This document shows positions 1 through 31,066 of a stretch of 31,066 nucleotides of DNA, in pieces. The position numbers and the translations under genes are program-made. Every line of letters starts with the position of its first letter. Position 1 is the first letter of the stretch. Below the pieces are notes generated by a model that saw nothing but the letters and a program-made list of their open reading frames with translations, made no database searches and was not told the DNA's origin. Origin of the DNA: a virus (Duplodnaviria > Heunggongvirae > Uroviricota > Caudoviricetes); the IMG/VR virus record IMGVR_UViG_2690316153_000021; one strand, given 5' to 3'.

Positions 1-996
1 TTATGGACGCATTATGGACATTCCTGACACCGGGTTAAGAGTCACTGCATCTTGTAAGAAATCCGGTGCAAAGTGTGCGTAGGTCATAGTTTGCTGAATG
101 TTAGAATGACCCAGGATGCGCTGCAATGTGATTATGTTACCTCCATTCATTATAAAATGTGTGGCAAATGTATGCCTCAAAACATGCACTGCCTGTCCGT
201 CAGGTAAATCGGGTTTTACTTCCCTGAGAGCGTTGCGCACTTTGTAGTAACTGGCATTAAAAAGCCTGCCTGAATTTTTGGTCTTGATCCGTTTAATCAG
301 GTCCTGCGAAACGGGAATTGTCCTGCGCTTTCCGTTTTTAGTTTTCATAAACGTAACCATCTGGTTAATGATGTGTTCAGCTTTTAAATTAGACACTTCA
401 CTCCAACGTCCACCAGTAGAAAGGCAGACCAGCGTTGCATTTAATTCATCGCCATCAAGCATGGATAACAGCCGCGTAATCTCTTCACTGGACAAAAAAG
501 CCATTTCCGTAACAGCTTCACGTAACCGCTTAACCTCACGGAACGGGTTGTGAGAGTGGTATTCACCGGCGTCAATTAACTTGGTGAACATCCCGCTCAT
601 TATTGCCAGATGCCGATTTACGCTGGCTGGTTTTAGACCATCGTTCATCATTACAACGCGATAATCAGTTATCGTTTTCTTTGTTAGCTGGTCTGCTCTG
701 GACACTCCCATTTCTGCAAATTTGGCGATTATTGTCGTTAAACGCCCTCGTTCAATATCTCCACGCTCATGTGATTTTCCGTGATATATCCACCATCTGC
801 CTAACAACTCTGTAAGAGTTCGGCGGTCGGCTGGCTTCTCTAACCACTCTTTGTTGTGGTAATTAACCAGCACATGACGTTCGAATGCCTGAGCTTCACC
901 TTTAGTTTTAAATTTCCGCCTGATACGTTTTCCATCTGCACCCTGCGGTCTGACGTCCACTTCATAACGACCATCATCGAGCTTTTTAATAGACAT
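1..996 (-). CDS. int: Phage integrase, tyrosine recombinase (P2 Int-like)
   Basis: 331-aa ORF; C-terminal region carries the tyrosine recombinase catalytic signature (HVLRHTFATH ... LGHSNIQQTMTYAHF); sits next to the repressor gene at the prophage left end as in P2. Window begins exactly at its stop codon. Confidence 0.9.
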   Translation of the reverse strand: MSIKKLDDGRYEVDVRPQGADGKRIRRKFKTKGEAQAFERHVLVNYHNKEWLEKPADRRTLTELLGRWWIYHGKSHERGDIERGRLTTIIAKFAEMGVSRADQLTKKTITDYRVVMMNDGLKPASVNRHLAIMSGMFTKLIDAGEYHSHNPFREVKRLREAVTEMAFLSSEEITRLLSMLDGDELNATLVCLSTGGRWSEVSNLKAEHIINQMVTFMKTKNGKRRTIPVSQDLIKRIKTKNSGRLFNASYYKVRNALREVKPDLPDGQAVHVLRHTFATHFIMNGGNIITLQRILGHSNIQQTMTYAHFAPDFLQDAVTLNPVSGMSIMRP

Positions 997-6445: not shown

Positions 6446-6897
6446 TGGCAAAAATTCACGAGGTAAAGCTGCACGCAAAATATTTCGACCTTGTACTGGA
6501 AGGAAAAAAACGCGCAGAGTTTCGGAAAAATGACCGTAATTATGAGCGCGGGGACACGTTGATTTTGCATGAATGGGTGCAGGGTGTGTTTACGGGGCGA
6601 AAGGTTGAAGCCCGGATAACAGATGTTACTGACCTGTCAGACTGGCTGGAAGATTATGTCTTGCTAAGTATTGAGCTGCTTAATACGGGCGCATATAAGA
6701 TTGTGAACTGGAAAGAACTTAGTGAACGTGGTCTGGTATTCAGAATTAATCATGAAATTATGCATCAGCTCGGCCTTGCTGTTATGTATGAACCAGAGAC
6801 GGGGCTGTCTGGCGGGGCAGTGGTTGCTGCGGATGGGATATGGAACTATTCAGATGAACAGGTGGAGCGTGCAAAGCAAAACGGGTGGCTTGGATAA
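6445..6897 (+). CDS. ASCH/DUF3850-like domain protein with extra C-terminal region
   Basis: Start ATG overlaps the A stop (TGATG). N-terminus (HEVKLHAKYFDLVLEGKKRAEFRKNDRNYERGDTLILHEW) matches my recollection of the DUF3850 / ASCH (PUA-like) signature; C-terminal about 70 aa unassigned. Confidence 0.5.
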   Translation: MAKIHEVKLHAKYFDLVLEGKKRAEFRKNDRNYERGDTLILHEWVQGVFTGRKVEARITDVTDLSDWLEDYVLLSIELLNTGAYKIVNWKELSERGLVFRINHEIMHQLGLAVMYEPETGLSGGAVVAADGIWNYSDEQVERAKQNGWLG

Positions 6898-7103
6898 TGC
6901 ACAGAATACCAGGCGAGATACCGCACCATAAAACTAAAAATATCAAGCTGATGGCTATTGTTCAGCGTTTACAGCGGATTATGGTCAACGAAAATCTGAC
7001 GCCCGATGAGCTGGTCGGGTGTGCCGAAATAGTTCGGGATAATTACGGGCGGCTTAACTATATCGGTCAGTCCAGAGTTGCGCCACCACCACGAAGACGA
7101 TAG
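6897..7103 (+). CDS. Small hypothetical protein (68 aa)
   Basis: ATG overlaps the stop of the preceding gene (TAATG), suggesting translational coupling; otherwise no support. Confidence 0.3.
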   Translation: MHRIPGEIPHHKTKNIKLMAIVQRLQRIMVNENLTPDELVGCAEIVRDNYGRLNYIGQSRVAPPPRRR

Positions 7104-8167: not shown

Positions 8168-8950
8168 ATGAAAATTATAAACCAACTTAAGAAGTTTGAT
8201 AAGAAAAGAACGCCAGATGATGGCCGTATTAGTTTGTTATATGAAAACGCGATTAAGTATGATATGTACTCTGTATATATTAAAGATAAAAATGATACAG
8301 AATACCTCTTTGACTGTTTGGTTGATGGGAAGATAAAGGCTTTTAAATGGGATGATGAGGAGCGTAGATTTCATATAAGTTCATGCTTGGATATTTCTGA
8401 GGTTACGCCTGATTCTTTTTTTGGTGTTTACTACTACCGTGCGCATGAGTTGCGATTTAACTCTTTAAATGATTTAACATTTTTAAGGGAGTTGTTCTTT
8501 AGAGTAAAGTCTAATTATGAAAATATAAAGTTTAGTCGTGAAAAATATATTTATCGACAGCAAAAAAAAGAAATAACTGATGTGATGTTTGTTCTCTCAA
8601 CGATTATAAGAATGTATCGTGAATGGGATGCTCAAACTGTGTTTAGTGAGTTTTCAATAATGACCGAAGTCGCTGGTAGTTTATGGGTATACCATGACGA
8701 TAAAAACAGGATGCGTAAAGAGCTTCGTTTATGCCTGAATTCTCTTGTTCAGAATGGAGATCTTGTTGAAACAAGTAGTGGATTTAGGCCAACAGGAAAG
8801 GCACTGAACACAATATCTACATTCAATAAAGATGAGGTGCGGTACAGAGAGAATTTGAGTACTCAGAAGAAAATGTTTTGGGCTACTTTTTTCGCAGCAG
8901 TCGGCGGCGTAGGAAGTATGATTGCAGCTATAATAGGGCTTCTAAAATGA
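8168..8950 (+). CDS. Accessory (moron) protein with single C-terminal transmembrane anchor, unknown family
   Basis: 260-aa ORF, strongly AT-rich; C-terminal hydrophobic stretch (MFWATFFAAVGGVGSMIAAIIGLLK) at the extreme end, i.e. tail-anchored topology; preceded by a terminator, so probably its own transcription unit. In the P2 tin/old slot. Confidence 0.6.
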   Translation: MKIINQLKKFDKKRTPDDGRISLLYENAIKYDMYSVYIKDKNDTEYLFDCLVDGKIKAFKWDDEERRFHISSCLDISEVTPDSFFGVYYYRAHELRFNSLNDLTFLRELFFRVKSNYENIKFSREKYIYRQQKKEITDVMFVLSTIIRMYREWDAQTVFSEFSIMTEVAGSLWVYHDDKNRMRKELRLCLNSLVQNGDLVETSSGFRPTGKALNTISTFNKDEVRYRENLSTQKKMFWATFFAAVGGVGSMIAAIIGLLK

Positions 8951-20438: not shown

Positions 20439-21042
20439 TTCGCGCCTGCTGCCGACCGGCTCATCACCGCTTGAAGTCGCCGCCGCAAGAGCCTGTGCGG
20501 AAATTGAAAAAACGCCGGTCAGTATTCGTGAGCTGTGGAACCCGGATACCTGTCCGGCAAATCTGCTGCCGTGGCTGGCGTGGTCATTTTCGGTTGACCG
20601 CTGGGATGATAAGTGGCCGGAAGCGACAAAACGCGCTGTTATCCGCGATGCGTATTTCATTCACTGCCATAAGGGCACTATTGGTGCGATTCGCCGTGTG
20701 GTGGAGCCGCTCGGCTATCTGATTGAGGTGAGGGAGTGGTGGCAGCTCAACGAGGAGCCGGGGACGTTCCGCATCGTTGTTGGCGTGCTTGAGCAGGGTA
20801 TTACCGAGGAAATGTATCAGGAGCTGGAGCGTCTCGTTGCTGATGCAAAACCTGCAAGCCGCCATCTGACGGGACTGGCTATCAGTTTAAGTACAACCGG
20901 CAACATTTTTGTCGGTGCGGGATGCTATCACGGCGACGCCCTGACGGTTTATCCCTACACCCCGGAGGCCATTATTGTCGGAGGGGATTATTTCCCGGCC
21001 TCGGCCATTCATTTAATTGATAACCTGAGAGTAAACGCATGA
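20431..21042 (+). CDS. I: Baseplate wedge protein I
   Basis: 203 aa (P2 gpI is 176 aa); start overlaps J stop, stop overlaps H start. Confidence 0.82.
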   Translation: MSDSRLLPTGSSPLEVAAARACAEIEKTPVSIRELWNPDTCPANLLPWLAWSFSVDRWDDKWPEATKRAVIRDAYFIHCHKGTIGAIRRVVEPLGYLIEVREWWQLNEEPGTFRIVVGVLEQGITEEMYQELERLVADAKPASRHLTGLAISLSTTGNIFVGAGCYHGDALTVYPYTPEAIIVGGDYFPASAIHLIDNLRVNA

Positions 21043-22367
21043 CAGTGAAATACTACGCCATTCTGACTAATCAGGGCGCAGCACGGCTGGCTAACGCGAC
21101 GATGCTCGGCAGTAAGCTGAATCTGACGCAAATGGCCGTTGGTGATGCGAATGGTGTCTTGCCGACACCAGACCCGGCACAGATAAAACTGATTAACCAG
21201 AAACGCATCGCGCCGCTGAATCTTCTGAGTGTTGACCCGAACAACCAGAGTCAGATTATTGCGGAGCAAATCATCCCTGAGAACGAGGGCGGATTCTGGA
21301 TCCGTGAGATTGGGCTTTATGATGATGAAGGCGTACTCATTGCGGTGGCGAACTGCCCGGAAACGTACAAACCGCAGTTGCAGGAAGGCAGTGGTCGTAC
21401 CCAGACTATCCGCATGATTCTGGTTGTCACGAATACCGAAGCTATCACGCTGAAAATCGACCCGTCGGTGGTACTGGCGACCCGTAAATATGTGGATGAT
21501 GAAGTCCTGGAATTAAGGCTGTATGTGGATGACCAGATGAGCAAACACATTGCCGCACAGGACCCTCATACCCAGTATGCACAGAAACATAATCCGACAT
21601 TTACCGGAGAACCAAAAGCACCGACGCCTGCCGCAGGAAATAACACCACGCGGATTGCGACCACTGCGTTTGTACAGGCCGCTATTACCGCTCTGATTAA
21701 CGGTGCGCCTGACACGCTGGACACACTGAAAGAAATTGCCGCGGCCATTAACAATGACCCGAAATTCAGCACCACCATTAACAATGCGCTGGCAGGTAAA
21801 CAACCGCTGGACAATACGCTGACTCATTTGAGTGGAAAGGATGTTGCCGGTCTTCTCGCATACCTTGGTTTGGGAGAAGGCTCAGCATTACCTGTTGGGG
21901 TGCCTGTTCCATGGCCTTCAGCCACACCGCCAACAGGCTGGCTGAAATGCAACGGTGCGGCATTTTCTGCTGAAGAATACCCGGAACTGGCAAAGGCTTA
22001 TCCAACAAATAAATTACCTGATTTACGCGGTGAGTTTATTCGTGGATGGGATGATAGTCGTGGTATCGACAACGGGCGTGCGCTGCTTTCATCTCAAGGC
22101 CATTCACTCAGAGACCACTCACATAACCAGCAGATCTGGACAGGTTCAAATACAACATCGTCAACTATTGGTCAGGCCGGGAGTTATGCTCCGCTAGCAA
22201 CTGGAGGGGATGGGGGGATTGCCTATACTGACCGGGAGCCTCAAAGCCTACCTTCAGCAGTAAGAGCTGTCAGCACTCGTGGGGTTGCTTCTGACAATGC
22301 AGCGAATATTGGCACTGAAACCCGCCCGCGCAACATTGCATTTAACTACATCGTGAGGGCTGCATAA
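21039..22367 (+). CDS. H: Tail fibre protein H (constant N-terminal part fused to currently expressed variable C-terminus)
   Basis: 442 aa; N-terminus and the ...NALAGKQP... segment resemble P2 gpH; shorter than P2 H (669 aa). The crossover site lies in-frame at codons YLGLGE (21861-21878). Confidence 0.85.
   Translation: MTVKYYAILTNQGAARLANATMLGSKLNLTQMAVGDANGVLPTPDPAQIKLINQKRIAPLNLLSVDPNNQSQIIAEQIIPENEGGFWIREIGLYDDEGVLIAVANCPETYKPQLQEGSGRTQTIRMILVVTNTEAITLKIDPSVVLATRKYVDDEVLELRLYVDDQMSKHIAAQDPHTQYAQKHNPTFTGEPKAPTPAAGNNTTRIATTAFVQAAITALINGAPDTLDTLKEIAAAINNDPKFSTTINNALAGKQPLDNTLTHLSGKDVAGLLAYLGLGEGSALPVGVPVPWPSATPPTGWLKCNGAAFSAEEYPELAKAYPTNKLPDLRGEFIRGWDDSRGIDNGRALLSSQGHSLRDHSHNQQIWTGSNTTSSTIGQAGSYAPLATGGDGGIAYTDREPQSLPSAVRAVSTRGVASDNAANIGTETRPRNIAFNYIVRAA
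21853..21878. promoter_or_regulatory. gix/cix-like invertase crossover site (left), inside H
   Basis: ttctcgcatacc-TT-ggtttgggagaa: 26-bp imperfect palindrome with half-sites of the form TTnTCnnAAACC around a 2-bp core; its right 14 bp are the exact reverse complement of 23729-23742. Confidence 0.6.
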
Positions 22368-22969
22368 TGACACAGGCAAAATTAAACAGTGAATTTATTG
22401 CCACAGTAGCGGGTGATATTACCGTCTATAACTATGACAACACGACACGGGAATACATTTCATCATCAACAGAATATCTTGCCGTTGGCGTCGGTATCCC
22501 GGCATGTTCTTGTTTAGATGCACCAGTTACACATAAAGCTGGTTATGCAATCTGCCGTTCTGCAGATTTTAACTCATGGGAATATGTACCAGACCATCGC
22601 GGTGAAATCATCTATAGCACCGAAACAGGAGAATCGAAAGAAATCACAGCTCCGGGTGATTACCCTGAAAATACAACCACTATCGCCCCGTTAACGCCAT
22701 TCGATAAATGGGATGGTGAGAAATGGGTGACGGATACCGAGGCACAGCATAGCGCCGCACTAGACGCGGCAGAAGCAAAGCGCCAGTCGCTGATTGATGC
22801 TGCAATGGCTTCCATCAGTCTGATTCAGATGAAATTACGGGCCGGGCGGAAGCTGACGCAGGCAGAAACCACCCGACTTAACGCTGTGCTGGATTACATT
22901 GACGCGGTGGAGGCAACAGATACCAGCACCGCGCCTGATGTCATCTGGCCTGAACTGCCGGAGGCGTAG
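22367..22969 (+). CDS. G: Tail fibre assembly chaperone (Tfa) for the expressed fibre tip
   Basis: 200 aa; start overlaps H stop (TAATG); C-terminus (NAVLDYIDAVEATDTSTAPDVIWPELP) is the typical Tfa chaperone C-terminal motif. Confidence 0.8.
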   Translation: MTQAKLNSEFIATVAGDITVYNYDNTTREYISSSTEYLAVGVGIPACSCLDAPVTHKAGYAICRSADFNSWEYVPDHRGEIIYSTETGESKEITAPGDYPENTTTIAPLTPFDKWDGEKWVTDTEAQHSAALDAAEAKRQSLIDAAMASISLIQMKLRAGRKLTQAETTRLNAVLDYIDAVEATDTSTAPDVIWPELPEA

Positions 22970-23381
22970 GCCATTCAATATCTGGCGCACCGGAAGTATC
23001 GACCAGTTCCAGTGCGTCCAGATAATCCAGCCACAAATTATATTGCACCAGTTCCTCACCTTTCAGGCGACCAATCGCCGCTTTACCAGGCCATTGCTTA
23101 CTGTTTATGTATTCGTTGACCTGATTAATCAATTGCTGCTTTTTCAGTTCGGCTGCGGCAATTTGTTCCTCATGAGTTGGCGGTGGAATATCAATCCATG
23201 CAGGCATTCCGTCGATGACACCTCTGTATTTTCCTTCTGGTGCTTCCTTCATAAATTCGGCAGCAACAGTGTCGTCAATTTCGATTCCATCATCGGGCCA
23301 TTCGCCGGATTCCTGATAAGCGATTTTAAGCTCCACAGGGAAAAACGCATTTTTATCGGCACTGAAAATATATTTCTGCAT
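22941..23381 (-). CDS. Alternative tail fibre assembly chaperone (Tfa') inside the invertible segment
   Basis: 146 aa on the minus strand; C-terminus (NLWLDYLDALELVDTSGAPDIEWPTPP) is paralogous to the plus-strand Tfa motif; 3' ends of the two tfa genes converge and overlap by about 29 bp. Confidence 0.75.
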   Translation of the reverse strand: MQKYIFSADKNAFFPVELKIAYQESGEWPDDGIEIDDTVAAEFMKEAPEGKYRGVIDGMPAWIDIPPPTHEEQIAAAELKKQQLINQVNEYINSKQWPGKAAIGRLKGEELVQYNLWLDYLDALELVDTSGAPDIEWPTPPAVQAR

Positions 23382-23383
23382 TT

Positions 23384-23728
23384 CTACCGTCCTATCGAAA
23401 TATAACTGAATCTGTATTGCTGTGAGATATCACTGGTTGCCACACGCCACGCTGAATTACTGATATGTTCAAAATTTACAGACAAAACCTGCGGGGCAGG
23501 AATCGACGGGTCTGACTGAACGGCATCAGACATAACACTGACTGAAACCATCGGCTGATTAGGGAATGGTATAGGGAAGTGTCCACTGATAAAGCGGGTC
23601 GTGTTTCCTGCAAAAGTGCCAAACTGAACAATATATCCACCTGGTAGCCTGAACCATCCCGAACCAGAAGCGAATGCTCCCATATCCGGTATCTGATTAT
23701 CTCCTGTGCCCACATCCCTTTTCGCCGC
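23384..23728 (-). CDS. Silent alternative tail-fibre C-terminal cassette (Hv'), expressed only after inversion
   Basis: Minus-strand frame reads ...VGLGEAAKRDVGTGDNQ... through the right gix site, in the same codon phase as H reads YLGLGEGS through the left site, so inversion would create an in-frame H::Hv' fusion. ORF-track ORF 23384..23782 has its only ATG upstream of the site, so it has no plausible independent start. Confidence 0.6.
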   Translation of the reverse strand, partial: AAKRDVGTGDNQIPDMGAFASGSGWFRLPGGYIVQFGTFAGNTTRFISGHFPIPFPNQPMVSVSVMSDAVQSDPSIPAPQVLSVNFEHISNSAWRVATSDISQQYRFSYISIGR

Positions 23729-23754
23729 TTCTCCCAAACCAACGTTTATGAAAA
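23729..23754. promoter_or_regulatory. gix/cix-like invertase crossover site (right)
   Basis: ttctcccaaacc-AA-cgtttatgaaaa; left half-site identical to the reverse complement of the right half-site of the 21853-21878 site. Confidence 0.6.
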
Positions 23755-23809
23755 TGCAAAGATAACGGGCAAGTGGCATCATCTCCGGTTTTTATTCAGG
23801 GGGATGCTC

Positions 23810-24403
23810 ATGTTTATTGGCTATGTACGCGTATCAACAAATGACCAGAACACGGAATTGCAGCGTAACGCGCTGGAATGCGCGGGATGTGAGCGGATTT
23901 TTGAGGACAAAATCAGCGGCACGAAGTCCGACAGGCCGGGGCTGAAAAAACTGCTCAGGACATTATCGGAGGGGGATACACTGGTAGTCTGGAAGCTGGA
24001 CCGGCTGGGGCGTAGTATGCGGCATCTGGTCATTCTGGTTGAGGAACTGCGCGAACGTGGCATTAATTTTCGCAGCCTGACGGATGCTATTGATACCAGC
24101 ACGCCGATGGGGCGTTTTTTCTTTCATGTGATGGGTGCCCTGGCTGAAATGGAACGAGAACTCATTGTCGAGCGGACTCGGGCCGGGCTGGAAGCGGCCA
24201 GAGCCAAAGGTCGTATTGGTGGCAGACGTCCTAAACTCACCACGAGTGAGTGGGAGCAGGCCGGGCGTTTGCTGGCTGCAGGGGAGTCACGTCAACGCGT
24301 GGCACTGATTTTTGATATTGGTCTGTCCACGCTCTATAAAAAATTTCCCTCATCAGCGACAAAGAATAAATTGTGTCATCCCTTAGCCAACCGGGACAAA
24401 TAG
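23810..24403 (+). CDS. Serine DNA invertase, Gin/Pin/Cin/Hin family
   Basis: ORF track 23804..24403; N-terminus (M)FIGYVRVSTNDQNTELQRNAL... with catalytic-serine motif (VRVST), resolvase-type N-terminal domain and C-terminal HTH (GLSTLYKKF); immediately adjacent to the invertible segment. Start at 23804 or 23810. Confidence 0.9.
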   Translation: MFIGYVRVSTNDQNTELQRNALECAGCERIFEDKISGTKSDRPGLKKLLRTLSEGDTLVVWKLDRLGRSMRHLVILVEELRERGINFRSLTDAIDTSTPMGRFFFHVMGALAEMERELIVERTRAGLEAARAKGRIGGRRPKLTTSEWEQAGRLLAAGESRQRVALIFDIGLSTLYKKFPSSATKNKLCHPLANRDK

Positions 24404-26240: not shown

Positions 26241-26516
26241 ATGAACAAAGAAAATGTCATTACCCTGGAAAATCCGGTCAAACGTGGTGAGCAGGTTATC
26301 GAACAGGTCACGCTGATGAAACCCAGTGCCGGGACGCTGCGCGGTGTCAGTCTGGCTGCGGTCGCAAACTCCGAAGTCGATGCACTGATTAAAGTGCTGC
26401 CGCGCATGACGGCACCGATGCTGACCGAGCAGGAAGTCGCCGCGCTGGAACTGCCTGACCTTGTGGCGCTGGCCGGTAAGGTGGTCGGTTTTTTGTCGCC
26501 GAACTCGGTGCAGTAA
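26241..26516 (+). CDS. E: Tail assembly chaperone E
   Basis: 91 aa, the P2 gpE length; sits immediately upstream of the tape measure gene; contains the slippery site for the E+E' frameshift. Confidence 0.85.
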   Translation: MNKENVITLENPVKRGEQVIEQVTLMKPSAGTLRGVSLAAVANSEVDALIKVLPRMTAPMLTEQEVAALELPDLVALAGKVVGFLSPNSVQ

Positions 26517-26668
26517 CGTTTCCGAAAAATCTCTCGGTCGATGACCTGATGGCGGATGTGGCAGTGATATTTCACTGGCCGCCATCAGAACTGTATCCCA
26601 TGAGCCTGACCGAACTCATCACATGGCGCGAAAGGGCGCTCCGGCGAAGCGGAAACACGAATGAGTAA
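26241..26668 (+). CDS. E': Tail assembly chaperone E+E' (-1 programmed frameshift product)
   Basis: Slippery heptamer T_TTT_TTG at 26489-26495 near the 3' end of E; the -1 frame is open from there to a TAA at 26666-26668 that overlaps the T start (ATGAGTAA). Predicted product about 142 aa, as for P2 E+E'. Confidence 0.65.
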
Positions 26669-29108
26669 CAATGTAAAATTACAGGTATTGCTCAGGGCTG
26701 TTGACCAGGCATCCCGCCCGTTTAAATCCATCCGCACAGCGAGCAAGTCGCTGTCGGGGGATATCCGGGAAACACAAAAATCACTGCGCGAGCTGAACGG
26801 TCAGGCATCCCGTATTGAGGGATTTCGCAAGACCAGTGCACAGCTCGCCGTGACTGGTCATGCACTTGAAAAGGCTCGACAGGAGGCCGAAGCCCTTGCC
26901 ACACAGTTTAAAAACACCGAACGTCCGACCCGTGCTCAGGCGAAAGTGCTGGAATCCGCAAAGCGTGCGGCGGAGGACTTACAGGCGAAATATAACCGCC
27001 TGACGGATTCCGTTAAACGCCAGCAGCGGGAACTGGCCGCTGTGGGAATTAATACCCGCAATCTTGCACATGATGAGCAGGGGCTGATAAACCGTATCAG
27101 TGAAACCACCGCACAACTTAACCGTCAGCGCGACGCACTGGCGCGTGTCAGTGCACAACAGGCAAAACTTAACGCAGTCAAACAGCGTTATCAGGCCGGA
27201 AAGGAACTGGCCGGAAATATGGCCTCAGTGGGCGCTGCCGGTGTGGGGATTGCTGCTGCGGGAACGATGGCCGGAGTTAAGTTGCTGATGCCCGGTTATG
27301 AGTTTGCGCAGAAAAACTCAGAATTGCAGGCCGTGCTAGGTGTGGCAAAAGACTCCGCCGAAATGACCGCACTACGCAAACAGGCGCGCCAGCTCGGCGA
27401 CAATACCGCCGCCTCGGCGGATGATGCGGCCGGTGCACAGATAATCATCGCGAAAGCGGGTGGGGATGTTGATGCCATTCAGGCGGCAACGCCGGTCACG
27501 CTGAATATGGCGCTGGCGAACCGCCGCACGATGGAAGAAAACGCCGCCCTGCTGATGGGGATGAAATCCGCCTTTCAGCTTTCAAACGATAAGGTCGCTC
27601 ATATCGGGGATGTTCTCTCCATGACGATGAACAAAACCGCCGCCGATTTTGACGGCATGAGCGATGCGCTGACCTATGCCGCACCTGTGGCAAAAAATGC
27701 CGGTGTCAGCATTGAAGAAACCGCCGCAATGGTCGGGGCGCTGCATGATGCAAAAATCACAGGCTCAATGGCGGGGACGGGAAGCCGTGCCGTGTTAAGC
27801 CGCCTGCAGGCACCGACGGGAAAAGCATGGGATGCACTCAAAGAGCTTGGAGTGAAAACCTCAGACAGCAAGGGAAACACCCGGCCAATATTTACCATTC
27901 TGAAAGAAATGCAGGCCAGTTTTGAGAAAAACCGGCTCGGTACTGCCCAGCAGGCTGAATACATGAAAACTATTTTCGGGGAGGAGGCCAGCTCAGCCGC
28001 CGCCGTGCTGATGACTGCCGCCTCAACCGGAAAGCTGGACAAACTGACCGCTGCGTTTAAAGCCTCAGACGGGAAGACTGCCGAGCTGGTAAATATCATG
28101 CAGGACAACCTCGGCGGTGACTTTAAGGAGTTTCAGTCCGCTTATGAGGCGGTGGGGACAGACCTGTTTGACCAGCAGGAAGGCGCACTGCGTAAGCTCA
28201 CGCAGACGGCCACAAAGTATGTGTTAAAACTCGACGGCTGGATCCAGAAAAACAAATCACTGGCGTCAACCATCGGCCTCATTGTCGGTGGCGCGCTGGC
28301 GCTTATTGGCATCATCGGTGCCATTGGTCTTGTAGCCTGGCCGGTTATCACTGGCATCAATGCCATCATCGCGGCAGCAGGCGCAATGGGGGCAGTCTTC
28401 ACGACGGTTGGCAGTGCTGTTATGACCGCCATCGGGGCGATTAGCTGGCCGGTTGTGGCCGTGGTGGCCGCCATTGTCGCCGGGGCGTTGCTTATCCGTA
28501 AATACTGGGAGCCTGTCAGCGCATTCTTTGGCGGTGTGGTGGAAGGGCTGAAAGCGGCATTTGCGCCGGTGGGGGAGCTGTTCTCGCCACTTAAGCCGGT
28601 GTTCGACTGGCTGGGCGAAAAGTTACAGGCCGCGTGGCAGTGGTTTAAAAACCTGATTGCCCCGGTCAAAGCCACTCAGGACACCCTGAACAGTTGCCGT
28701 GACACGGGGGTCATGTTCGGGCAGGCACTGGCTGACGCGCTGATGCTGCCGCTTAATGCGTTCAACAAACTGCGCAGCGGTATTGACTGGGTACTGGAAA
28801 AACTCGGTGTTATCAACAAAGAGTCAGACACACTTGACCAGACCGCCGCCAGAACTCAAGCCGCCACGTATGGCAGCGGTGGTTATATTCCGGCGACCAG
28901 CTCTTATGCAGGCTATCAGGCTTATCAGCCGGTCACGGCACCGGCTGGCCGCTCTTATGTGGACCAGAGTAAAAACGAATATCACATCAGCCTGACGGGG
29001 GGGACTGCGCCGGGGACACAGCTCGACCGCCAGTTACAGGATGCGCTCGAAAAATACGAGCGGGATAAACGTGCGCGCGCCCGTGCCAGCATGATGCATG
29101 ACGGTTAA
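26661..29108 (+). CDS. T: Tail tape measure protein
   Basis: 815 aa, the P2 gpT length; long alpha-helical N-terminal region, central hydrophobic/Gly-Ala-rich segment, typical of tape measure proteins. Confidence 0.9.
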   Translation: MSNNVKLQVLLRAVDQASRPFKSIRTASKSLSGDIRETQKSLRELNGQASRIEGFRKTSAQLAVTGHALEKARQEAEALATQFKNTERPTRAQAKVLESAKRAAEDLQAKYNRLTDSVKRQQRELAAVGINTRNLAHDEQGLINRISETTAQLNRQRDALARVSAQQAKLNAVKQRYQAGKELAGNMASVGAAGVGIAAAGTMAGVKLLMPGYEFAQKNSELQAVLGVAKDSAEMTALRKQARQLGDNTAASADDAAGAQIIIAKAGGDVDAIQAATPVTLNMALANRRTMEENAALLMGMKSAFQLSNDKVAHIGDVLSMTMNKTAADFDGMSDALTYAAPVAKNAGVSIEETAAMVGALHDAKITGSMAGTGSRAVLSRLQAPTGKAWDALKELGVKTSDSKGNTRPIFTILKEMQASFEKNRLGTAQQAEYMKTIFGEEASSAAAVLMTAASTGKLDKLTAAFKASDGKTAELVNIMQDNLGGDFKEFQSAYEAVGTDLFDQQEGALRKLTQTATKYVLKLDGWIQKNKSLASTIGLIVGGALALIGIIGAIGLVAWPVITGINAIIAAAGAMGAVFTTVGSAVMTAIGAISWPVVAVVAAIVAGALLIRKYWEPVSAFFGGVVEGLKAAFAPVGELFSPLKPVFDWLGEKLQAAWQWFKNLIAPVKATQDTLNSCRDTGVMFGQALADALMLPLNAFNKLRSGIDWVLEKLGVINKESDTLDQTAARTQAATYGSGGYIPATSSYAGYQAYQPVTAPAGRSYVDQSKNEYHISLTGGTAPGTQLDRQLQDALEKYERDKRARARASMMHDG

Positions 29109-29122
29109 GGAGGTGACGAAAA

Positions 29123-29602
29123 ATGATGCTCGCGTTAGGTATGTTTGTTTTTATGCGCCAGACGCTGCCACACCAGACCATGCAGCGTGAATCAGATTAT
29201 CGCTGGCCGTCAAATTCCCGTATCGGCAAACGGGATGCCTTTCAGTTTCTCGGTGTGGGTGAGGAAAACATCACGCTGGCCGGTGTGCTTTATCCCGAAC
29301 TGACCGGCGGCAAGCTGACGATGACCACGCTCAGGCTGATGGCAGAGGAAGGCCGGGCGTGGCCGTTGCTGGATGGCACCGGCATGATTTACGGCATGTA
29401 TGTCATCAGTAAGGTGAGTGAAACAGGGAGTATTTTCTTTGCAGACGGCACACCCCGAAAAATTGATTTTACGCTGTCGCTCACCCGCGTTGATGAATCA
29501 CTGGCCGCGCTTTATGGCGATATCGGTAAACAGGCGGAATCGCTCATCGGTAAGGCTGGCAATATGGCGACTAAATTCACGGGTATGACGGAGGCGGGAT
29601 AA
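29123..29602 (+). CDS. U: Tail protein U (tail tube terminator/initiator)
   Basis: 159 aa, the P2 gpU length; AAGGAGG SD. Confidence 0.88.
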   Translation: MMLALGMFVFMRQTLPHQTMQRESDYRWPSNSRIGKRDAFQFLGVGEENITLAGVLYPELTGGKLTMTTLRLMAEEGRAWPLLDGTGMIYGMYVISKVSETGSIFFADGTPRKIDFTLSLTRVDESLAALYGDIGKQAESLIGKAGNMATKFTGMTEAG

Positions 29603-30766
29603 TGCTGGATGCGCTGACATTTGATGCAGGCAGTACGCTGACGCCGGATTACATGCTGATGCTCGACAGCAAGGATATTACCGGCAATATCAGCGACCGT
29701 CTGATGAGCATGACCCTGACGGATAACCGGGGCTTTGAGGCTGACCAGCTTGATATTGAACTGAACGACGCCGACGGGCAGGTCGGGCTACCGATTCGTG
29801 GCGCTGTCCTGACGGTGTATATCGGCTGGAAAGGTTTTGCCCTGGTATGCAAAGGGAAATTTACCGTTGATGAGGTTGAACACCGGGGCGCGCCGGATGT
29901 GGTTACCATCCGCGCCCGGAGTGCAGATTTCCGCGGGACGCTCAATTCCCGCCGTGAAGGCTCCTGGCATGACACCACGCTCGGTGCGATTGTTGAGGCG
30001 ATAGCCTCCCGTAACAGGCTGGAAGCCAGTGTCGCTCCGTCACTGGCCGGAATTAAAATCCCGCACATCGACCAGTCGCAGGAGTCTGATGCGAAATTCC
30101 TGACCCGTCTTGCAGAACGCAACGGCGGTGAGGTGTCGGTAAAAATGGGAAAACTGTTGTTTCTCAAAGCGGGGGCAGGGGGTGACGGCCAGCGGTAAAA
30201 AAATCCCGCAGATTACCATCACCCGCAGCGACGGCGACCGTCATCATTTTGCGATTGCTGACCGTGGAGCCTATACCGGCGTAACGGCAAAGTGGCTTCA
30301 CACCAAAGACCCGAAGCCGCAAAAGCAGAAGGTAAAACTGAAACGCAAAAAGAAAGAAAAACACCTGCGCGCACTGGAGCACCCAAAAGCGAAACCGGTC
30401 AGGCAGAAGAAAGCGCCAAAAGTACCGGAAGCGCGCGAAGGTGAATATATGGCCGGTGAGGCTGACAATGTTTTTGCCCTGACCACGGTATATGCCACGA
30501 AAGCGCAGGCCATGCGCGCCGCTCAGGCGAAGTGGGATAAACTGCAACGGGGCGTTGCGGAGTTCTCCATCAGCCTGGCTACCGGTCGGGCAGATATTTA
30601 CACGGAAACACCGGTTAAAGTGTCAGGCTTTAAGCGCGTCATAGACGAGCAGGACTGGACAATCACTAAGGTGACACATTTTCTGAATAATAGCGGCTTC
30701 ACGACGTCCCTGGAGCTTGAGGTCAGGCTTTCTGATGTGGAGTACGAAACAGAAGATGATGAGTGA
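29602..30766 (+). pseudogene. D: Tail protein D (baseplate hub, late-control D protein) interrupted by a +1 frameshift
   Basis: Two adjacent ORFs (29602..30198, 198 aa; 30182..30766, 194 aa) together span 1165 nt, one more than the 1164 nt expected for P2 gpD (387 aa + stop). The frames switch within gcGGGGGcaGGGGGtg (30171-30182). Could be a genuine inactivating mutation or a homopolymer sequencing error. Confidence 0.75.
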
Positions 30767-30847: not shown

Positions 30848-31066
30848 ATGTTTCATTGTCCTTTATGCCAGCATGCCGCACATGCGCGTACAAGTCGCTA
30901 TATCACTGACACGACAAAAGAGCGTTATCACCAGTGTCAGAACGTGAATTGCAGCGCCACGTTCATCACTTATGAGTCGGTACAGAGATACATCGTGAAG
31001 CCGGGAGAAGTCCACGCCGTGAGGCCGCACCCGTTGCCGTCAGGGCAGCAAATTATGTGGATGTAA
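30848..31066 (+). CDS. ogr: Ogr late-gene transcription activator (zinc finger)
   Basis: ORF track 30785..31066; ATG at 30848 gives 72 aa (MFHCPLCQHAAHARTSRYITDTTKERYHQCQNVNC...), the P2 Ogr length with its four-cysteine zinc-binding arrangement. Last gene before the prophage right end as in P2. Confidence 0.88.
   Translation: MFHCPLCQHAAHARTSRYITDTTKERYHQCQNVNCSATFITYESVQRYIVKPGEVHAVRPHPLPSGQQIMWM

Follow-up and report, generated by a model that had tools for sequence, protein, structure and literature searches.

Does gene D of this P2-like prophage, which reads as two open reading frames (ORFs), carry a real mutation, and what would remain of its function? The initial annotation had described D as two ORFs whose joint span exceeds that of an intact 387-aa gene by a single nucleotide. 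This is borne out in the window (the whole stretch of 31,066 nt analysed here), where D spans 1165 nt, one more than the 1164 nt of the intact gene of phage P2 (AF063097) and of all the close relatives listed, phages and complete E. coli genomes alike (Table 1). In the ORF calls, ORF1 and ORF2 overlap by 17 nt in different frames. The bases at 30169-30184 are gcGGGGGcaGGGGGtg, with a tract that is G4-CA-G5 in the wild type and G5-CA-G5 in the window.

The nearest intact D was found in E. coli CFSAN061770, in a prophage that is likewise followed by ogrK and then pflB. In a global alignment, the D of the window differs from it by two substitutions (29672 and 30017) and one extra G in 30171-30175, placing the frame switch at the first G-run, where the initial annotation had put it. 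As also anticipated there, removal of one G from this run restores a continuous frame, yielding a 387-aa gpD (...KAGQGVTASGKK...) with two amino acid differences from that of CFSAN061770; a frame of 387 aa is likewise recovered if a G is taken out of the second run, with a Q191A change. The ORF1 protein consists of the 190-191 N-terminal residues of gpD followed by the out-of-frame residues (A)GGDGQR, after which comes a TAA stop. The gene therefore has the make-up of a slippage pseudogene, with a one-base indel in a mononucleotide run, no other lesion, and 194 downstream codons that stay open. Fifteen nt 3' of the G tract, D has another slippage-prone stretch, an A7 run at 30197-30203, which includes the ORF1 stop.

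Table 1. Coordinates of gene D, its G tract and other features of the prophage in the window.
Feature	Position	Strand	Remarks
Gene D (baseplate hub, gpD), putative frameshifted pseudogene	29602..30766	+	1165 nt vs 1164
ORF1	29602..30198	+	198 aa, 21.4 kDa; PF05954 profile 11-146, E=2.4e-12
ORF2	30182..30766	+	194 aa, GTG start; gpD residues 193-387, original D frame; PF05954 profile 168-304, E=5.8e-9
First G5 run, site of the +1 insertion	30171..30175	+	G4 in all intact relatives
Second G5 run	30178..30182	+	Wild-type length in the window; last G is base 1 of the ORF2 GTG
Both D frames open	30143..30195	+	A +1 ribosomal slip anywhere inside would rejoin the halves, by sequence logic only
Gene U (tube initiator), intact	29123..29602	+	Directly upstream of D; tblastn
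ogr (late-gene activator), intact	30848..31066	+	100% identical to P2 Ogr
Tail-fibre cassette: fibre gene	21039-22367
Tail-fibre cassette: fibre assembly gene	22367-22969
Tail-fibre cassette: second assembly gene, inverted	22941-23381	-
Tail-fibre cassette: alternative fibre C-terminus, inverted	23384-23782	-
Tail-fibre cassette: resolvase-type invertase	23804-24403
Tail-fibre cassette: 27-nt inverted repeats	21853-21879 and 23728-23754
Low-GC island: ORFs of 257 and 260 aa	7285-8058 and 8168-8950	+	Also 6885-7103 in the island

Both halves match the Phage_GPD family (PF05954, cut-off 30.1 bits), with 47.1 bits for ORF1 and 36.0 bits for ORF2, against 93.5 bits for the repaired protein, which covers positions 11-304 of the 305 in the profile. 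Tblastn with P2 proteins places the gene in a tail operon with T at 26661-29105, U at 29123-29599, D at 29602-30763 and ogr at 30848-31063, the same operon place that gpD has in P2 (AAD03295.1; FI-FII-E/E'-T-U-D-ogr). P2 gpD shows 96-97% amino acid identity to both halves, and the repaired protein has a length of 387 aa; the P2 gene is not interrupted, whereas that of the window carries a +1 frameshift after codon 191. In canonical P2 (AF063097, about 23350-23366) the tract reads GCGGGGCAGGGAGTG, in which a synonymous A interrupts the second G-run (GGGAG in P2, GGGGG in the window), and P2 therefore lacks the G5 run that is recurrently lost in prophages (see below).

A protein of solved structure, chain C of the R2 pyocin (PDB 6U5H), is homologous to gpD over residues 14-231 and 295-371 (E=7.8e-46). 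This chain, which we take to be the hub of the R2 pyocin, is intact, has 329 aa and leaves gpD residues 232-294, with the Lys-rich stretch inside them, unaligned; it was used as a structural reference only, for the location of the break. The alignment runs uninterrupted across the break point, which falls within a contiguous conserved block. According to these alignments, the break cuts the single Pfam hub domain mid-way, away from any domain boundary. Judging from its sequence, the D of the window is P2 gpD by descent, and we consider it a pseudogene as it stands because it is not a single uninterrupted ORF of ca. 387 aa with the whole hub domain, being divided into ORFs of 198 and 194 aa.

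With the integrase gene (1-996, minus strand) at one end and ogr (30848-31066) at the other, the window comprises a P2-like prophage. Over its final 11,465 bases, the stretch compared, it matches contig CYED01000008.1 of E. coli GCA_001284965.2 at 100% identity. In that contig pflB comes after ogr, and the same integrase adjoins pflA in all four places listed in other genomes; hence, the element sits in the pflA-pflB interval. We found no direct parent prophage with an intact D among complete genomes, the best matches being only 97-98% identical over 93-95% of the query. In tblastn searches with 42 P2 proteins, 36 aligned without gaps and only D was split into two segments; full-length, ungapped matches were obtained for Q, P, O, N, M, L, X, Y, K, lysA, lysB, lysC, R, S, V, W, J, I, FI, FII, E, T, U, ogr, B and A. 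H and G are absent in their P2 form, replaced by a different, open tail-fibre module with an invertase. Apart from D, the P2 essential genes present in the window are full-length and ungapped, in agreement with the earlier statement that the other structural genes look intact. The slippery site of E/E', TTTTTTG (GGTTTTTTG), is kept at 26489-26495, and because of this conservation the recoding signal of the tail chaperone (the -1 frameshift site of P2 E/E') is predicted to be intact.

The initial annotation had offered a choice between a sequencing or assembly error and a single recent mutation. This choice was well put, and the evidence weighs toward the mutation: we consider it likely that the extra G is a real, recent change. 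A Logan assembly made independently from read set ERR178186 has the G5-CA-G5 tract internal to a 7.8-kb contig, and the Logan and GenBank contigs are each reported in two samples. GenBank lists the exact 198-aa frameshifted product twice (CTV47005.1 and CTX26725.1), and two contigs are on record for it, the longest of 161,721 bp, as compared with 158,241 bp for the contig of the window. Furthermore, the 28 other comparable homopolymers listed in the window leave the aligned P2 genes and the other ORFs examined undisturbed, and these tracts include a G7 (28997), a G6 (22212), a C6, an A8 and the second G5 of D at wild-type length. The Logan assembly, the two accessions and the undisturbed homopolymers are the reasons why we favour a real mutation over an artefact. 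The chromosomal flank genes pflB, focA, ycaO and serC are full length as well. Generally poor assembly quality can be discarded, since there is no other indel in the homopolymers or the P2 genes of the window.

It is unlikely, with a small but appreciable probability, that the genome has G4 and that the additional G entered the consensus by mistake, the tract being rich in G. A single-base homopolymer indel is the classic type of error, and two metagenomic sequences are irregular at this very place: scaffold L009 (ERZ28649658) has a gap of 10 Ns exactly at the G tract, and L006 (ERZ504562 NODE_223, coverage 5.4) has GGGGAA for GGGGG, an odd G-to-AA change with a net gain of one base. The D tract may thus be awkward for assemblers, or else heterogeneous in these two samples. 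Nevertheless, a second assembler working on the raw reads gives an equal base count mid-contig, without break or bubble, and the recurrence of the 198-aa product under two accessions and the integrity of the other homopolymers, several of them longer, within the same 31 kb also count against an error. A 5-base run is, moreover, well within the accuracy of Illumina sequencing, the platform that we assume for this read set. The agreement between the Logan assembly and the two GenBank accessions on the indel is to be read with the proviso that the assemblies may derive from the same reads and that the second GenBank record of the 198-aa product may not be an independent isolate. On balance, we infer that the extra G is present in the DNA, beyond the reads alone.

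A 96-nt query with the G5-CA-G5 context matched 986 copies of D, none of them perfectly (100% identity), in 912 of 5,426 complete E. coli genomes; a query of wild-type length matched 1,712 complete-genome copies. Likewise, none of 44 phage records contained this context at 100% identity, and the exact G5-CA-G5 pattern did not appear in GTDB species representatives, in IMG/VR or in JGI metagenomes. With a length-tolerant pattern, at least 120 IMG/VR loci and three other Escherichia species were matched, all of them of wild-type length. Because it is absent from the 986 E. coli copies, the phage records, IMG/VR, JGI and GTDB, the G5-CA-G5 allele appears to be private and recent; just two substitutions separate the D of the window from an intact copy.

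Using the exact ORF2 protein as a look-up query for other split D genes, an approach that detects only frameshifts near the G tract, we retrieved alleles of the opposite sign. A G4-CA-G4 tract, with one G lost from the second run, occurs in four loci (L004, L007, L010 and L011) from GCA_050525625.1, ERR8574628, ERR5984654 and ERR10498524, and also in the complete genome of E. coli RM8082 (L136; NZ_CP043825.1, 4531170-4532332), whose D (F1745_RS22485) is labelled 'frameshifted' by PGAP. The RM8082-type D shares with that of the window the gene, the 11-nt tract, the two-ORF layout and an identical 194-aa ORF2; it differs in that it has lost a G from the second run, for a total of 1163 nt, where the window gained one in the first. 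Its ORF1 has 193 aa and ends at a TGA stop that overlaps the GTG of ORF2 (GTGA). The RM8082-type alleles reside in other prophages at other integration sites, namely fieF-pfkA and a peptidase U32 site, presumably yegQ, instead of pflA-pflB. We regard the lesion of the window as of the same kind as that flagged in RM8082.

The -1 alleles lie on D backgrounds that are 11-24 sites apart and at different chromosomal sites. Among complete genomes, the best match of both L004 and L010 is an unbroken 1164-nt D from which the allele departs in nothing but the indel (99.9%), and the D genes of the two loci differ from each other at 23 sites. Because each has an intact twin while 23 sites separate them, these two alleles appear to be independent and very recent events, and the remaining -1 alleles are plausibly independent too. 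For the same reason, we rejected the idea that the split gene is old and under selection. Only one or two records with a -1 allele and none with +1 occurred among the 986 copies that the query matched in complete genomes, and neither type was present in 120 sampled IMG/VR loci. This pattern suggests that the tract slips repeatedly and that the mutant alleles are then lost, which argues against a maintained, functional split gene. Since the look-up sees only near-tract frameshifts, this recurrence does not imply that the tract is struck more often than other parts of D. Overall, 106 of 109 complete D copies sampled were intact. Lesions away from the G tract were also seen in IMG/VR: locus L021 (5220-6378) has two 1-nt deletions near codons 313 and 317 of D, and in L077 (304-1164) the gene lacks its first 100 codons or so.

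We propose that replication slippage added one G to the G4 run of G4-CA-G5 in the D gene of an otherwise complete prophage, a +1 insertion in a G4 run being a textbook product of strand slippage. The frame would shift after codon 191 and translation would stop seven codons later, producing a 198-aa N-terminal fragment, with the C-terminal 194 codons remaining open in the original frame. The annotation of AF063097 describes gpD as an 'essential tail protein', and three copies per virion form the hub between gpU and gpV (preprint 10.64898/2026.09.14.750843). This trimeric baseplate hub joins the spike gpV to the tube initiator gpU, and without full-length gpD the assembly of baseplate and tail should fail; the 198-aa fragment, devoid of half the hub domain, should likewise fail to nucleate a baseplate. 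The prophage would retain immunity, cargo, replication, DNA-filled heads and lysis, and would release no infectious particles. We infer, therefore, a tail-less phenotype. P2-type prophages with a C/Cox switch are classically not inducible by the SOS response or mitomycin, so mitomycin induction may give nothing whatever the state of D.

Several ways out of this block can be envisaged. Reversion would be possible through the loss of one G from either G5 run, which would restore the 387-aa frame. Complementation could come from the gpD of another P2-like prophage or phage; a second P2-like prophage in the same genome could fulfil this role, and complete E. coli genomes hold up to four copies of D. 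Finally, leakiness could result from rare +1 ribosomal slippage, supplying the three gpD of a virion, or from a restart at the GTG of ORF2. Because ORF2 has a credible Shine-Dalgarno (SD) sequence and GTG, and the tract allows +1 slippage, the loss of D function may be incomplete.

A D gene that is truly mutated and yet functional, through low-level +1 slippage on GGG_G or through halves that arise by GTG restart and assemble into a hub, is nonetheless very unlikely. Slippage would be productive: with the D frame free of stops from 30143 on, a ribosome slipping by +1 at 30172-30175 would make the exact wild-type protein, and three copies of gpD suffice per virion. The SD-like GGGGG lies 2 nt upstream of the second GGG_G and 6 nt upstream of the GTG at 30182, and the predicted SD pairing of ORF2, -8.6 kcal/mol as compared with -9.5 for the start of D itself, is similar to that of genuine starts of this operon; the GTGA overlap of the ORF1 stop with the ORF2 start, seen in the -1 alleles, is a typical coupling arrangement. 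Against this, the +1 allele is private and shows no conservation, and the -1 alleles of L004 and L010 equal their intact twins bar the indel, so that split forms neither persist nor diversify. The A site has no slow or stop codon, no RNA structure is predicted at the tract beyond that of shuffled sequence (fold z = 0.15), there is no Rfam match at the tract, and the break falls inside the contiguous conserved block of the single hub domain. In a stronger version, G4-CA-G5 would be a built-in soft-failure site, where split gpD (halves of ~21 kDa) or slipped gpD still gives some functional tails. The recurrent frameshifts each leave an SD-like G-run before an in-frame GTG; even so, we find this version highly improbable. 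If it were true, the prophage would be attenuated, not dead.

Even less probable, and only barely conceivable, is that G4-CA-G5 serves as a phase-variable (contingency) switch for tail production. The +1 allele of the window and the five -1 alleles affect one and the same 11-nt tract, on -1 backgrounds that are well separated, and the two alleles tested are independent. A switch, though, should have ON and OFF lengths that are both common, and the wild-type length was found in 120 of 120 sampled IMG/VR loci, the off alleles being as rare among the E. coli copies as stated above. The GGGAG of P2 indicates that the tract is not conserved as a repeat, lesions in D are also found elsewhere in the gene, and the recurrent alleles come from a look-up that is blind to frameshifts away from the tract. 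Known homopolymer phase-variation loci usually have seven or more bases, and G runs of 4-5 are shorter. The suggestion of slipped-strand variation made in the initial annotation thus holds in part: the tract has indeed been hit repeatedly in other prophages, but the alleles are rare and young and do not amount to a switch. Because the tract is hit repeatedly and the mutants are rare and young, sporadic slippage appears to be the explanation, rather than phase variation or programmed recoding.

Programmed recoding was rejected because the split form is not conserved (none of the 986 E. coli copies or 44 phage records has it, and it did not turn up in IMG/VR, the JGI metagenomes or the GTDB representatives) and has neither RNA structure nor an Rfam family. 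We take the D tract to be superficially similar to E. coli prfB, where a +1 shift is stimulated by an SD: in D, too, a codon prone to shifting is closely preceded by an SD-like G-run. GGG_G and the upstream SD-like run are present in D, but GCA and GGU, which occupy the A site, are neither stop nor rare codons, as expected of a mutation and not of a recoding signal. The contrast with P2 E/E' is clear, since the programmed -1 site at TTTTTTG is kept in this same window, whereas the D frameshift is conserved in no relative.

A sporadic slippage mutation in D is an ordinary first step of prophage decay and involves no new principle. In practical terms, D of this prophage should be annotated as a frameshifted pseudogene, and neither the release of infectious particles nor helper activity towards P4-like satellites should be taken for granted in this prophage, whose immunity, cargo genes, tail-fibre invertase and lysis genes are still intact. 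It provides a clean example of early decay, with one lesion and nothing else, and adds to the evidence that the hub gene contains a short double G-run which is repeatedly struck across E. coli prophages.

Other regions of the prophage also depart from P2. An invertible tail-fibre cassette (21039-24403) stands in place of P2 H/G and Z/fun, with the layout given in Table 1. Between gene A/orf91 and Q, where P2 has tin and old, there is an island of low GC content (34-39%, as compared with about 52-58% around it). By eye, its 257-aa ORF has an N-terminal hydrophobic stretch and its 260-aa ORF a C-terminal one, which could be membrane segments. Neither ORF has a Pfam, NCBIfam or PADLOC match, and they match only PHROGs of unknown function (phrog_3403 and phrog_7611); the island is a candidate for uncharacterised cargo, possibly anti-phage. 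The integrase, a C-like repressor (1090-1440, HTH_3) and Cox (1493-1849) share only 35-53% identity with those of P2, pointing to a different type of immunity and integration. An identical integrase is very widespread, being indexed in 14,860 blocks of the collection.
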